From the NCBI RefSeq assembly GCF_003334815.1, contig NZ_QOWO01000006.1: DNA of 64,000 bases. One strand, 5' to 3'. Below, in pieces: positions 48,155 to 60,866 of the stretch (positions are counted from its first letter, which is position 1; the number at the start of each line of letters is the position of its first letter). A program made the translations under genes and the position numbers. The notes beneath the pieces are model-generated. The model worked only from the letters and a program-made list of their open reading frames with translations. It did no database searches and was not told where the DNA came from. The DNA comes from Escherichia coli. GTDB taxonomy: Bacteria > Pseudomonadota > Gammaproteobacteria > Enterobacterales > Enterobacteriaceae.

Positions 48155-50170
48155 TTACAACACCTCGCGAACCGAGATCCCCAGCCGCTGCATTCGTGAC
48201 AGCAGCGTGGTGCGCTTCATCCCTAATCGCGTCGCTGCGCCACGGGGCCCGGCAACAATGCCATTGGTTTCTCGCAATACCTGAACAATGCGCTGACGTT
48301 CTTCTTCGTCATTCTCTGGCGTCGTCGGGTGCAGTAACTGCGCCATTGAACTGCGAAGCGCTGAATCTTCATTTAGCGTCGGCAGTAAACGGCTTTGTCG
48401 GACATTTAGATGTAAATTCAGACTGTTACCACGAGTCAACAGTACCGCCCGCTCAATCACGTTTTCCAGCTCGCGCACGTTGCCCGGCCAATCCCACGAC
48501 ATCAACTGGCGTAGTGCCTCGGTCGGGATGGCGTCAATTGCGCGATTCATATGGCGCGCCATTTTTTGCGTGAAATGTTTTGCTAAAAGAGGGATATCTT
48601 CCGGACGGTCGCGTAGCGGCGGCAATTCCAGTGGGAAGACATTCAGGCGATAAAAGAGATCGCTGCGAAACTGGCGATCTTCAACCATTTGCCACAAATC
48701 ACGGTTGGTGGCGGCAATGACTCTGACATTCACCGGGATCGTTCTACTCCCGCCGAGACGCTCAATCTCCCGCTCCTGCAATACGCGCAGCAGTTTAGGC
48801 TGAAGTTCTAACGGCAGATCGCCAATTTCATCGAGAAACAACGTGCCGCCATCGGCAATTTCAAAACGACCACGATGGGTATTAATCGCACCAGTAAACG
48901 CCCCTTTGTCATGACCGAATAACTCACTTTCCAGAAGACTGGCGGGGATGGCAGCGCAGTTGATTTTGACCAGCGGCTTGTCGCGTCGCGGGCTAAGTTG
49001 ATGGATCGCTCTGGCGATCACCTCTTTGCCAGTTCCGGTTTCACCACAAATCAACACCGTACTGTCGCTCTTCGCCACAATATCTACCTGCTGGAGCAGG
49101 TCTTCCATTGCCTGGCTTTGATAGATAATGTCACCGATGCCCAGATTCGAAAGGAGCTGCTCGCTAAGCTGGTGGTTTTCTTGCTGCAAACTTTCCTGCA
49201 AATCGGTCATGCTACGCCAGGCATCGGCATTGCCAACGGCAATAGCGATGCGATCGGCTATGTGTTGTAGTAGCTGGCAGTTTTCCTCACTAAAGAGAGT
49301 GGAAGAGGTATGCGCCAGCAACAATGCACCCGGTGTATGGTTGCCAAAGGTAAGCGGTATAAGGAGCGCAGATTCGCAGCCGTTAGATGCAAGTAAGAGT
49401 AATAACGGGTCGCGTTGCCAGAGAAACAGATCATCTGCACGGTGCGTCAAGGTCGGTTGTCGGGTTTGTAGCGTTTGTGTCAGCAATACACTTTCGCCAG
49501 GCATACAGCGTGGCAGACACGCACAATGTGAGGCAGAAAGATCGCTGCACCACAGGCTGAACTTCTCGTTCTTTCGATGATCGCCCAGTACCATACTGAC
49601 TGAAGCCAGACCGAAAAAATGATGGATCTCACGAGCGACGTCAGCGATCAGATCGTCGAGATCAAGATGTGACAGCACTGCATTAGTAATATCAACCAGT
49701 ACCCGATGATGATCGCGATCTTTCTCCAGCAAACGCAGCGCCACCTGCTGTTCTTCATCATTGAGCCATGATTGCAGAACCGGGGTGATTATCCGCGCCA
49801 GCCAGTTAAACAGTGTGCAATCCTGGGAAGTAAAACGACTGCCGTGGGTGCGAATAAAGCGTAGCTCCGCCATTCCACTACTGCCGAGAAGGACGGCGTG
49901 ACGCGAATAATCGACCATCTCGCCCTGATACTCTGTTGTTGCCGTCACATCGCTGCCATCATCATGGTAGCGGTAATAGAAGTTGCTTTTGAGAACATGC
50001 AGTTCAATAAGTTGTACCGGGCTGAACGGCGGCGGCAGCGGGATGAAGGCGCGTAATAAAGACGCCTTGCCGTGTTTCTGTGCTAACCGCTCCGCGAGCA
50101 TTCCGTTTACCGCTTCAATTGTTATTCCTTGTGGCGGGGCAAACATCGCCTCGTCTGACATAGCCATCAA
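48155..50170 (-). CDS. hyfR: HyfR sigma54-dependent transcriptional activator (formate-responsive, FhlA-like), about 670 aa
   Basis: Track ORF (true start may be the second ATG at 50167); AAA+ sigma54-interaction motifs GETGTGKE and GAFTGA; C-terminal HTH. Confidence 0.9.
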
Positions 50171-50196
50171 CAGTCCTTATTAATGAGAAATCCTTC

Positions 50197-58230: not shown

Positions 58231-60249
58231 TTAGACGGCAATAGCGATTAGCAGCACAACCAGTGCGGCGACCACATACAGGCAATAGAGACGAAAGTCG
58301 CCGCTTTGCAGATGCTGTATTTCTTTGGCCAGCCGTTGGGTGGCGCTCACGATGGGGCGGATCACCCGCTCATCCCAGAAGGGTTCTGTGCTCTGAGCCC
58401 TGGCGGTGACGTGCGCAAGACCTTTATTTAGCCTCAGCGTAGGGTCGAGCTGTTGTCGTAGACGAAATAGCGCAGAAAAGACCACACGCAGCGGCTGCAT
58501 CACGCCATTGCCTGACGGGGCCATCGCATTTTCCCAGCCGTAGCCGCATGCCCAGGCATCTCCTGTGCGACGAAACGCTGCGCGGCGCGAACGACACCAC
58601 AGCCAGTAAAGGCCAGGCAGCAAAGGCATCGCCAGTAGTAACAGCAACAGTAATGAGGGGGTGACCTGTGTATGAAACGTGCCGGGTACAAGTGCTATTC
58701 CGCTGGCGACAGTGGCGGGAGGGGTATTGGTAAACGCATGGGCAATATGCATTATCTTCGGTGCCAGCCAACTGGCACTAAGCGCAATTAATACGCAGAG
58801 TGCCGCGAGCAGTAGCATGGCGACGATCATCGTATTTGGCACTTCCTGTGCCTCTTCAGCGTGTGTACTGCGCGGCGCACCACAGAAAGTAATACCGTAC
58901 ATTTTTACGAAGCACATTACTGCCAGCCCACCAGTGACTGCCAGCATTACCATAGCAATAGGACCCGCAAGTTGTAGCGCTACGGCTTCCACACGACTTA
59001 GTGAGAACAGCGACTGCCAGGTGTACCATTCGCTGATAAAACCATTCAGCGGAGGAATGGCTGATATCGCGAGGCAACCAATCAGGCATGCTGCGGCTGT
59101 CCACGGCATCCGTTTCGCTAGTGCCCCCATTTTTTCCATGTCGTGGGTATGCAAACGCGAAATAATCGCTCCCGCGCCGAGAAATAGCAGCCCTTTGAAC
59201 AGCGCATGGTTGAGCAGATGAAACAGTGCGCCGAGCAGTCCAACCACGGTGAGCAGCGGGTCGTGCAGTGACAGACCGACCATCGCCACACCGACTGCCA
59301 GCAAAATAATGCCGACGTTTTCGACGGTACTCCAGGCCAGCAGCCGTTTGATATCCTGTTCCGCCAGCGCATATAGCACGCCCAGGAGCGCGGAGATTGC
59401 GCCGATCGCCATCACCAGAATGCCCCACCACAGAGGCAAACCCGTTTGCGCCAGCAGATCCATCGCTACTTTCAGGATGCCGAAAATACCTATTTTGACC
59501 ATTACGCCAGACATCAACGCCGAAGCGTGCGATGGTGCGGCAGGGTGAGCGCGCGGCAACCAGCTGTGCAACGGCATCATCCCGGCTTTCGCGCCAAAAC
59601 CGAAAAAGGCCAGCAGGAACACCGCCGACGCCAGCCCCGGAGAAAGTGAAAGCGTGCGGAAACTGGCAAAATCGAGGCTGCCGCTTTCGCGCCCCATCAG
59701 CAAGAAGGCGATCATTATCAGCACCGATCCGGCGTGGGCGATAAAAAAGTAGAGCATGCCAGCGTTGATCGACGTTTTATCCTGCCTGGCAATGACCAGA
59801 AACCAGGAAGACAGCGACATCATTTCAAACAGCACGATGAACCAAAAAGCGTTGTCCATCACCAGCAGGGCAACCATCGATGCGATGAAAATATTCATAA
59901 AGAAGCCCATCGCCGCCGCGCCTTTGCCCTCGTATTCGCGCATATAAGTCAATGAATAGAGAGAACAAACCACCACCAGCAAGGAGATAACCAGCACCAT
60001 AAATGCCGAGAGGCTATCCATTCGCAGGGTTAAATCGGCAAATTCAAAAGGGGTGGCAAAACGGGCGACTAAAGTTACACCAGCATGTAATTGCGTAATT
60101 CCGCTGATGATGCCAATCACGCCGCCCACCAGCGATGTGATGCCGGAAAGCTTAATAGCCAGTCTGTCCAGACCGAGTAAAAACAGCGAAGCCAGACTAG
60201 CAAACAGATAGAGAATCAGCGACCAGGTTAATAATTGCAGGGCATCCAT
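58231..60249 (-). CDS. hyfB: HyfB membrane subunit (NuoL/antiporter-like), 672 aa
   Basis: Track ORF; multi-TM; start overlaps hyfA stop by 1 nt. Confidence 0.9.
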   Translation of the reverse strand: MDALQLLTWSLILYLFASLASLFLLGLDRLAIKLSGITSLVGGVIGIISGITQLHAGVTLVARFATPFEFADLTLRMDSLSAFMVLVISLLVVVCSLYSLTYMREYEGKGAAAMGFFMNIFIASMVALLVMDNAFWFIVLFEMMSLSSWFLVIARQDKTSINAGMLYFFIAHAGSVLIMIAFLLMGRESGSLDFASFRTLSLSPGLASAVFLLAFFGFGAKAGMMPLHSWLPRAHPAAPSHASALMSGVMVKIGIFGILKVAMDLLAQTGLPLWWGILVMAIGAISALLGVLYALAEQDIKRLLAWSTVENVGIILLAVGVAMVGLSLHDPLLTVVGLLGALFHLLNHALFKGLLFLGAGAIISRLHTHDMEKMGALAKRMPWTAAACLIGCLAISAIPPLNGFISEWYTWQSLFSLSRVEAVALQLAGPIAMVMLAVTGGLAVMCFVKMYGITFCGAPRSTHAEEAQEVPNTMIVAMLLLAALCVLIALSASWLAPKIMHIAHAFTNTPPATVASGIALVPGTFHTQVTPSLLLLLLLAMPLLPGLYWLWCRSRRAAFRRTGDAWACGYGWENAMAPSGNGVMQPLRVVFSALFRLRQQLDPTLRLNKGLAHVTARAQSTEPFWDERVIRPIVSATQRLAKEIQHLQSGDFRLYCLYVVAALVVLLIAIAV

Positions 60250-60866
60250 TAGCGTTGCTCCTGAGTGAGGGAAAGGGGATCCTCCCCGCCATTGGCAAAC
60301 CAGCTTGCGGCAAGGCGCTGTTTTTCTTTCATCTGACGTTGCAGGCTATCACCGGTGATCAGCCGTAACGCCTGATTCGGGCAAGCGCGAACGCAGGCCG
60401 GACCTTCTGGCAAGAAATCACACAGGTCGCATTTCACCGCGACGGTCTGGACACCAGGTTCCCAGCGCAGCAAAGCATGTTGTGTTGGCGCGTTTTCTTC
60501 GCCGTCTTTGAGTGAGCCTTCAGCCTGAAAAACATATTGCGCATGGGCATTCACCGGACGGCTTCCTGAAGCGCTGATTGCGCCAAATGGGCAGACCACG
60601 GCGCAAAGCTTGCAGCCAATACAGAGGCTTTCGTTGAGTTGGATCGCATCATCCCTCTGAGAGATGGCATTGACCGGGCAGACCTGCAGGCAAGGGGCTT
60701 CCTCACAGTGATGACACACGACAGGGGCAGTGATTGTTGACGTCTTCGCCAGGGCCAGGCGCGGGTGTTGCTGTAAACCTTGCGTTTTATGCACGTCCGA
60801 ACAGGCAGCGAGACAGGTATTACATCCTGTACACCACAGTGGTTCGGCCACCACAAAGCGGTTCAT
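60249..60866 (-). CDS. hyfA: HyfA multi-[4Fe-4S] ferredoxin subunit, 205 aa
   Basis: Track ORF 60249..60905; start at ATG 60866 with AAGGAG SD (MNRFVVAEPLWCTGCNTC); the longer track ORF start would lie at or upstream of the predicted sigma54 transcription start. Confidence 0.9.
   Translation of the reverse strand: MNRFVVAEPLWCTGCNTCLAACSDVHKTQGLQQHPRLALAKTSTITAPVVCHHCEEAPCLQVCPVNAISQRDDAIQLNESLCIGCKLCAVVCPFGAISASGSRPVNAHAQYVFQAEGSLKDGEENAPTQHALLRWEPGVQTVAVKCDLCDFLPEGPACVRACPNQALRLITGDSLQRQMKEKQRLAASWFANGGEDPLSLTQEQR

Follow-up and report, generated by a model that had tools for sequence, protein, structure and literature searches.

A 48-bp in-frame deletion in hyfG of an Escherichia coli hydrogenase-4 operon with twelve open reading frames

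Does the hydrogenase-4 (Hyd-4) operon of Escherichia coli encode a working enzyme that laboratory conditions merely leave silent, or one that would fail even when expressed? The question is raised by the hyf operon, for hydrogenase-4 or formate hydrogenlyase-2 (FHL-2), in a stretch of 64,000 nucleotides of E. coli DNA (RefSeq assembly GCF_003334815.1, contig NZ_QOWO01000006.1), referred to here as the window. Hyd-4 of E. coli is reported to be poorly expressed, with an activity that has yet to be demonstrated (PMC7384014; 10.1101/563510), and has been called a 'long-standing mystery' (10.1101/563510), and an earlier note made from the sequence of the window had presented its operon as a complete copy, silent in K-12 but intact here. 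Our analysis leads to another reading, to which we assign a probability of roughly 70%: the operon has intact open reading frames (ORFs), carries the K-12 allele, and is probably a catalytically dead member of an eroding locus.

The window contains, in virtually the K-12 allele, the hyf locus from the chromosome of an E. coli resembling phylogroup A, and both the identity and the anatomy of the operon, which is itself already known and ordinary, are secure. All 64,000 of the 64,000 nucleotides align collinearly to K-12 MG1655 with 12 mismatches and zero gaps (NC_000913.3 2598067–2662066, reverse complement), and 20.4 kb of the window match the public draft assembly GCA_003334815.1 at 100% identity. 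The hyf region differs from K-12 at 3 nucleotides in 13.6 kb (99.98% identity), all three of them missense, and the density of single-nucleotide polymorphisms (SNPs) is no higher there than elsewhere in the window (3 of the 12 mismatches in 21% of the sequence). The gene order is hyfABCDEFGHIJ-hyfR-focB, with bcp/gcvR on one flank and yfgO on the other, as in K-12; gene lengths, starts, stops and junctions from hyfA to focB all equal those of K-12 b2481–b2492, and RefSeq genomes carry the same gene annotation. A 13-kb hyf query finds matches in 4299 of 5426 complete E. coli genomes, chromosomal in every case. NCBIfam equivalog models for HyfB, HyfD, HyfE, HyfF, HyfH and FocB exceed their cut-offs, as does the HycH-family model for HyfJ, and the extra membrane subunits specific to FHL-2 (HyfD, HyfE and HyfF) are all present by this measure. 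The same scan returns no above-cut-off model for HyfA, HyfC or HyfG, and HyfI passes a generic NuoB-family model only; given these missing specific models, the four proteins are assigned to the system because of their K-12 identity and a PDB match.

The identification of the locus as hyf in the earlier note thus holds on sequence identity, genomic context and family models together. The twelve genes lie consecutively on the minus strand with zero internal stops, and the gene-by-gene comparison with K-12 upholds the absence of frameshifts and premature stops. Either of these would have spoken against the note by its own terms, and formally neither occurs, since the lesion described below is an in-frame deletion. 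The operon is thus complete and intact at the level of its ORFs, and is not so in its catalytic subunit, where hyfG has lost 48 bp. The proposed contrast with K-12 fails because the operon is the K-12 allele, 3 nucleotides apart: K-12 is equally ORF-intact, and the idea of a potentially functional copy unlike that of K-12 gives way to an operon whose hyfG is missing 16 codons, as in K-12.

The hyfG deletion and the decay of the locus

In other E. coli the full-length hyfG gene has 1716 nucleotides and encodes 571 residues, with the same GTG start and the same 11-nucleotide overlap with hyfF. Aligned with these full-length alleles, hyfG of the window and of K-12 lacks 48 bp (16 codons) after codon 388, and the lost residues, 389–404 of full-length HyfG, are YSPVGPLIRGSGFARD. 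The deletion is visible only against the 571-residue HyfG of other E. coli or against HycE, the large subunit of the paralogous hydrogenase of formate hydrogenlyase-1 (FHL-1). A PDB search with the window HyfG finds the HycE chain 7Z0S_E with an E-value of 7.6e-279 and a 16-residue gap in the query, and the gap recurs against MbhL. We regard it as almost certain that the deletion is real and derived, because the outgroup homologues and HycE carry the segment. The opposite polarity, in which the full-length allele would have arisen by insertion or duplication, was considered and ruled out; the outgroups and HycE have the segment, whose sequence is unique and conserved.

The site itself points to a mechanism. 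Full-length alleles contain two copies of the 10-bp sequence GCCCGTGATT placed 48 bp apart and encoding ARD-YSPVGPLIRGSGF-ARD, and the window retains a single copy at the deletion junction (52416–52425, minus strand). The perfect direct repeat is present in 9 of 9 full-length alleles and reduced to the single copy in 11 of 11 deleted ones; the matching place in hycE shows no direct repeat in its DNA. From its sequence, the single remaining copy reads as the signature of replication slippage.

Allele frequencies were estimated among the 5426 complete genomes with a junction-specific 44-mer and a full-length 114-mer. The junction 44-mer occurs in 2113 genomes, including K-12, the BL21-derived Rosetta2 and O111:H8, and the full-length 114-mer is covered in 2180, including O157:H7. 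The deletion allele is accordingly found in about 39% of all complete genomes and about 49% of hyfG carriers (2113 of about 4295), in a collection of complete genomes whose sampling is biased toward laboratory and clinical lineages.

The 11 deleted alleles are identical to one another over a core of at least 630 bp, a stretch in which the 9 full-length alleles have 24 variable sites, and every pair of deleted and full-length hyfG differs within 138 bp of the deletion site. A single and fairly recent origin of the deletion, followed by recombination, would fit these patterns best. We take the deletion to be young because the deleted alleles share the 630-bp core haplotype, and the four-gamete pattern that it forms with a frameshift in hyfI implies recombination within the operon. 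Recurrent independent deletions at the repeat are not favored, given the same shared core in 11 of 11 deleted alleles. No paper that our search could reach mentions a natural hyfG deletion, the original 1997 description and several reviews lying outside that reach; we do not claim priority for noticing it, and specialists could already know of the length difference.

The deletion is one of several kinds of damage that hyf has suffered in the species. The block is absent from 1127 of the 5426 complete genomes (21%), and the bcp flank is present in all 5426; in strain CD306, yfgO abuts bcp and hyf is missing. Touchon et al. list hyfABCDEFGHIJ among the functions absent from phylogroup B2. In a survey of 20 aligned hyf operons, 11 with deleted and 9 with full-length hyfG, other lesions recur in independent assemblies, among them a 1-nucleotide deletion in hyfI (5 genomes), a 208-nucleotide deletion in hyfD (4 genomes) and a 1-nucleotide deletion in focB (3 genomes). 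The list also includes single-nucleotide deletions in hyfB, hyfC and hyfD, the loss of 6 nucleotides from hyfH, a stop codon inside hyfR and an IS421-family insertion in hyfA. Additional lesions occur in 7 of the 11 deleted-hyfG operons versus 2 of the 9 full-length ones, in a sample that is small and non-independent.

Over the long term, intact full-length operons have diverged from one another with a ratio of non-synonymous to synonymous divergence (dN/dS) of about 0.11, which argues that hyf was historically under purifying selection. Five K-12-like deleted haplotypes show zero synonymous differences among them and non-synonymous ones only, a pattern that is suggestive, not proof, of relaxed constraint, recent polymorphism being always enriched in non-synonymous changes and the samples being small and non-independent. 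Taken from the sequences sampled, hyf reads as an eroding accessory locus in E. coli, absent, deleted or frameshifted in most lineages.

The lost segment and the activity of hydrogenase-4

How much would the loss of 16 residues matter to the enzyme? The conserved V-G-P-x-x-R-x-S-G segment that is missing from the window HyfG occurs in every one of the 48 distant representatives whose sequence covers the region, with Gly in 48 of 48, Pro in 43 of 48 and Arg in 47 of 48. Among the 120 best (close) cluster representatives it is present in 115, and all 5 exceptions are E. coli-type sequences. An alignment of 62 sequences of 30–89% identity has 27 invariant columns only, two of which are the deleted G393 and R397, and V392, P394 and S399 of the deleted piece are conserved at 90% or more. 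HyfG R397 aligns with Arg395 of HycE, in the motif GPMVR395ASG. In the cryo-electron microscopy structure of FHL (PMC9474812), His284, Glu437 and Arg395 of HycE were assigned to a putative proton-transfer pathway that ends at the Arg478/Asp529 canopy, and the pathway residues appear to have been conserved in complex I as well as in FHL, MBH and soluble hydrogenases.

The remainder of the catalytic site is retained. E195 of the beta1-beta2 loop, H286, E423 and the canopy residues R464 and D515 of the window HyfG correspond to E193, H284, E437, R478 and D529 of HycE, and the equivalents of HycE C531, C534 and R537 are also kept. The N-terminal Ni-binding motif, of the RxCGxCxxxH type, lies at HyfG residues 241–251 (52828–52860, minus strand), with C243 and C246 invariant in the 62-sequence alignment; the C-terminal motif occupies residues 515–523 (52012–52038, minus strand) and is followed, after R523, by an assembly peptide of 32 residues at the C-terminus. 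Both motifs had been reported as present, and both are; the second, quoted as DPCYSCADR, is not the K-12 or species-wide form, which is DPCYSCTDR. The fused NuoC-like N-terminal domain is likewise present (PF00329, PF00374 and PF00346 on an identical gene). When the two alleles were modeled with AlphaFold from the same alignment, the pLDDT of the block fell from about 95 in the 571-residue protein to 73 at the junction of the 555-residue one and two short helices were lost, a drop in local confidence only, which we grade as weak evidence that cannot decide function.

On these grounds, which are conservation and the pathway assignment of one structural paper, we consider it probable, though by no means assured, that the 48-bp deletion abolishes or severely impairs Hyd-4. 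Genetic experiments on K-12 bear directly on the point. In the last systematic attempt to activate the operon in K-12, Finney et al. exchanged the hyf promoter for Phyc or PT5, with MG1655 and MC4100 as host backgrounds, and obtained no H2, and a fusion of the HycE tail to nucleotides 1–1569 of hyfG, a construct of the 555-residue allele, gave no H2 either; the outcome was ascribed to 'additional, unknown, biosynthetic problems' (PMC7654741). The hyf operon of Trabulsiella guamensis, in turn, is active in E. coli together with the E. coli FdhF (10.1101/563510), and because that FHL-2 works there the E. coli host must be competent.

The mechanism of the functional relatives is established from the FHL-1 structure and from active FHL-2 systems. 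In these, FdhF, encoded elsewhere in the genome, oxidizes formate and hands electrons on to three Fe-S proteins (HyfA, HyfH and HyfI), from which they reach HyfG; at its [NiFe] site protons are reduced to H2. HyfC and the antiporter-like HyfB, HyfD and HyfF, with HyfE, form a complex-I-like membrane arm; HyfJ helps in assembly, FocB serves as a formate channel, and the large subunit is cleaved at its C-terminus by HycI. HyfR, with FhlA and formate, activates the sigma-54 promoter upstream of hyfA. In the window and in K-12 the deletion, probably by slippage between the two GCCCGTGATT copies, has removed HyfG 389–404, including the invariant Gly and Arg, leaving a shortened HyfG that may be unable to fold, mature or deliver protons properly; a HyfG defective in this way would mean that no active Hyd-4 arises from the operon even when it is expressed, as in K-12. 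The two missense changes particular to the lineage of the window, T521A in HyfG and E4V in HyfJ, would have been added afterwards, T521A in a gene perhaps already free of constraint.

Several observations weigh against an operon that is catalytically dead by reason of this deletion. Mirzoyan et al. 2017, known to us through its citation as ref. 22 of PMC11841067, claim Hyd-4-catalyzed H2 in K-12 derivatives that carry the deletion, and physiological phenotypes of hyf mutants have been published. The global AlphaFold fold is unchanged, with a pTM of 0.86 for 555 residues versus 0.87 for 571. The K-12-like haplotype keeps twelve open ORFs, which would not be expected indefinitely of a long-neutral sequence. 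Of the 9 sampled operons with full-length hyfG, 2 have frameshifts too, so decay is not confined to operons with the deletion. Finally, set against the consensus of seven full-length operons that are intact, the K-12-type operon shows 20 further amino-acid changes, 7 of them in HyfF (e.g., G28R, H29L and A328E) and three in HyfA (e.g., P108H and D172G), and any of these lineage-specific changes could equally contribute to inactivity.

The deletion might accordingly be tolerated, with a short HyfG that matures and evolves H2, perhaps weakly or in stationary phase or at alkaline pH, as a neutral or mildly adaptive variant. An allele frequency of about 49% among hyfG carriers, a K-12-like haplotype with no other disruptive lesion, the retained Ni ligands and canopy residues, the preserved global fold and the claim of Mirzoyan et al. 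all speak for such tolerance. We find it doubtful nonetheless: Gly and Arg are invariant across 30–89% identity, the Arg is assigned to the proton pathway, the segment is missing from zero non-E. coli homologues examined, independent groups saw no Hyd-4 activity in K-12 despite strong promoters, and further lesions have accumulated in 7 of the 11 deleted operons of our small and non-independent sample. The older explanation, under which the operon is complete and functional, merely transcriptionally silent in the laboratory, and would yield active FHL-2 given the right signal (formate, HyfR, anaerobiosis or pH), agrees with the open ORFs, the two Ni motifs, the intact sigma-54 promoter and hyfR, and the poor native expression of hyf in K-12 documented, through PMC7384014, in the literature it cites. 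Silence cannot be transcriptional only, because replacing the promoter in K-12 by Phyc or PT5 yielded no H2 (PMC7654741); the 16 absent residues, two of them invariant, are moreover never missing in non-E. coli homologues, and we judge this explanation distinctly unlikely.

A role other than hydrogen production seems to us very unlikely. The operon would in that case be kept because, for example, the membrane arm moves ions or protons, FocB transports formate or HyfR acts as a regulator, and a crippled HyfG would be irrelevant. The ORFs of the membrane subunits, hyfR and focB are open, physiological reports (PMC12396580 and PMC13298927) link hyf and focB mutants to H+/K+ fluxes, and hyfDEF of Pectobacterium atrosepticum is dispensable for H2 production, its role having been left open (PMC7384014). 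The lesions of other lineages strike these very genes (hyfB, hyfC, hyfD, hyfR and focB), however, 21% of genomes have no hyf block at all, and the sequence carries no sign of a separate function.

Our preferred reading, a probably catalytically dead operon of the K-12 allele in an eroding locus, can be extended to a stronger and more tentative proposal. In that proposal, which we put forward as possible and no more, the hyfG deletion is a single-origin loss-of-function allele that recombination has spread to about half of hyf carriers, including K-12 and B, and it is the main unrecognized cause of the failed attempts to activate Hyd-4; re-insertion of the 16 codons would then give an active FHL-2, and so would a full-length operon taken from nature, for example from O157:H7. 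Were this true, restored or natural full-length hyfG would provide E. coli with a complex-I-like formate hydrogenlyase that is active and may conserve energy. The K-12 reference hyfG is a deletion variant, and about half of hyfG-carrying E. coli have the undeleted gene; an inactivity of Hyd-4 that has been called 'silent' or a mystery for more than 25 years thereby gains a concrete and testable candidate cause. The erosion of the locus also bears on how physiological claims for Hyd-4 from K-12 strains should be read.

Missense changes, operon anatomy and surroundings

Each of the three differences from K-12 within hyf changes an amino acid. At HyfB residue 66 (SNP 60054) the window has Thr and MG1655 has Pro; because 19 of the 20 aligned operons have Thr66, it is the MG1655 Pro66 that is derived, Thr66 being ancestral. 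HyfG T521A (SNP 52020) converts DPCYSCTDR to DPCYSCADR next to a Ni-ligand Cys. By an allele-specific 55-mer, Ala occurs in 1 of the 5426 complete genomes (strain 52F4) and Thr in 4292, and the exact T521A protein is found on 22 public contigs; strain 52F4, the sole complete genome with the change, has its hyfA interrupted by an IS421-family element. Position 521 is Thr in 118 of 118 close homologues and in 35 of 55 distant ones, where Ala appears once. The comparison identifies T521A as derived and rare. As a knockout by itself T521A is not supported, the position being variable in distant group-4 enzymes though invariant in close relatives. HyfJ E4V (SNP 50600) is essentially private to the lineage, with Val in 1 of the 5426 complete genomes, on a divergent background, and the exact protein on 5 contigs.

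The operon reads on the minus strand from hyfA to focB. The gene hyfA (60249–60866; 205 residues) encodes a ferredoxin-like Fe-S subunit homologous to HycB and has 0 nucleotide differences from K-12 b2481. It is followed by hyfB (58231–60249; 672 residues), an antiporter-like membrane subunit that scores 977 bits with NF005086 against a cut-off of 667, and by the K-12-identical hyfC (57273–58220; 315 residues), a NuoH/HycD-like membrane subunit with weak matches to NuoH families. Three further membrane subunits are likewise identical to K-12. HyfD (55817–57256; 479 residues) and HyfF (53570–55150; 526 residues) are antiporter-like and FHL-2-specific, with 811 bits in NF005097 (cut-off 430) and 1177.5 bits in NF005041 (cut-off 951), respectively, and the small HyfE (55155–55805; 216 residues), diagnostic of FHL-2, scores 369.5 bits in NF008556 (cut-off 136). 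The deletion allele of hyfG (51913–53580; 555 residues) encodes the [NiFe] large, catalytic subunit from a GTG start at 53580.

Downstream lie the K-12-identical hyfH (51358–51903; 181 residues), a 2x[4Fe-4S] subunit homologous to HycF (362 bits in NF006076, cut-off 270), and hyfI (50603–51361; 252 residues), the small subunit homologous to HycG and NuoB, also identical to K-12 (121.6 bits in NF005012, cut-off 116). The HycH-like assembly chaperone gene hyfJ (50197–50610; 137 residues; 208 bits in NF011664, cut-off 145) carries E4V. The product of hyfR (48155–50167; 670 residues, K-12-identical) is a sigma-54-dependent activator paralogous to FhlA; its best NCBIfam match is the FhlA model NF011958, with 642 bits under a cut-off of 830, and GAF and Sigma54_activat Pfam domains are recorded on a gene identical to it. 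The operon closes with focB (47285–48133; 282 residues, K-12-identical), a formate channel gene with 649 bits in NF007261 (cut-off 499). The interval 48155–60866, which had been given for all twelve genes, spans hyfR to hyfA only and leaves focB outside.

The junctions are tightly packed. The overlaps given in the earlier note are exact, as is the GTG start: 1 nucleotide between hyfA and hyfB (TAATG), 11 between hyfF and hyfG, 4 between hyfH and hyfI (ATGA) and 8 between hyfI and hyfJ (ATGACTGA). The non-overlapping junctions have gaps of 10, 16, 11, 4, 9, 29 and 21 nucleotides, none longer than 29, and at the B/C, C/D, D/E and G/H junctions the TAA stop is embedded in the Shine-Dalgarno sequence of the next gene (TAAGGA(G) type). 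Because of the four overlaps and the four stops within Shine-Dalgarno sequences, we infer that the packing is compatible with translational coupling of the twelve cistrons. An in-frame ATG at 53625, 45 nucleotides upstream of the hyfG GTG, would give a 570-residue product and a 56-nucleotide overlap with hyfF; the annotated GTG is favored because the alignment with HycE begins at residue 7.

Upstream of hyfA, a sigma-54 promoter with the -24/-12 elements TGGCAT-N5-ATGCA can be read from the sequence at 60908–60923 (minus strand), and its string ATGGCATCCTTTATGCA equals the sigma-54 binding site that Bonocora et al. list for hyfA (PMC4591121). About 100 bp further upstream lies an inverted repeat, the perfect 14-bp palindrome CGACACGGGTGTCG (61019–61032, minus strand), identical in K-12; it stands at the position expected of an enhancer and is a candidate HyfR/FhlA site, which we offer as a lead only. 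At the other end, where focB and yfgO converge, the focB stop gives way at once to a terminator-like hairpin of 13 pairs, 8 of them G-C (47251–47280, minus strand), which is likely a bidirectional terminator. A protease gene and an fdhF gene are both absent from the hyf locus. On the chromosome, hycI and fdhF have their places elsewhere, outside the window. That E. coli hyf loci have no gene for a maturation protease was already known (PMC7654741).

Elsewhere in the window, the coding differences from K-12 number 8, of which 3 are missense and 5 synonymous. The missense changes fall in the housekeeping genes pbpC (P665T, window position 16734), rodZ (R136H, 19629) and bamB (T201A, 24015). Rfam models identify ryfA RNA at 7909–8212 and its paralogue IS128 RNA at 8344–8552, which together form a direct repeat of about 195 bp with 82% identity, and the mismatch with K-12 at 8465 falls within the IS128 RNA. 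An iscRS stability element (425–534) and the small RNA sroE (21381–21472) also match Rfam at the gathering threshold, as expected for this K-12 region.

Comparison with known hydrogenase systems

The nearest comparison is the hyf operon of K-12 MG1655 (b2481–b2492; Andrews et al. 1997), which shares with the window its position, twelve genes, junctions, sigma-54 promoter and hyfG deletion, and from which the window differs by HyfB Thr66, HyfG T521A and HyfJ E4V. The full-length-hyfG operons of E. coli, such as those of O157:H7 PV15-279, strain 106 and FDAARGOS_1281, occupy the same locus, with an unchanged order of genes, unchanged junctions and the GTG start, at a synonymous divergence (dS) of about 4–7%; their 571-residue HyfG keeps YSPVGPLIRGSGFARD, and the window differs from their consensus at 20 more amino-acid positions.

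The hyc system of FHL-1 (HycE; PDB 7Z0S and 7Z0T) is a close paralogue, with 412 identical positions between HycE and the 571-residue HyfG, and the two large subunits are alike in their Ni motifs and canopy residues and in a C-terminal extension that is 32 residues long. FHL-1 differs in having two membrane subunits only and its own protease, HycI, and in a HycE that keeps the GPMVR395ASG loop. The active FHL-2 systems of P. atrosepticum and T. guamensis have the same hyfA–J set and five-subunit membrane arm (PMC7384014; 10.1101/563510); unlike the E. coli locus, theirs encode a protease, HyfK, and the hyf locus of T. guamensis is without focB (10.1101/563510). All 115 examined cluster representatives that are not of E. 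coli type keep the segment lost from the window, among them one named for Pectobacterium betavasculorum. The comparison extends at last to complex I, whose NuoCD/NDUFS2 subunit has a homologous fold: there a quinone pocket takes the place of the NiFe site, and in PDB alignments the segment deleted from HyfG corresponds to the GxxLRxSG stretch.

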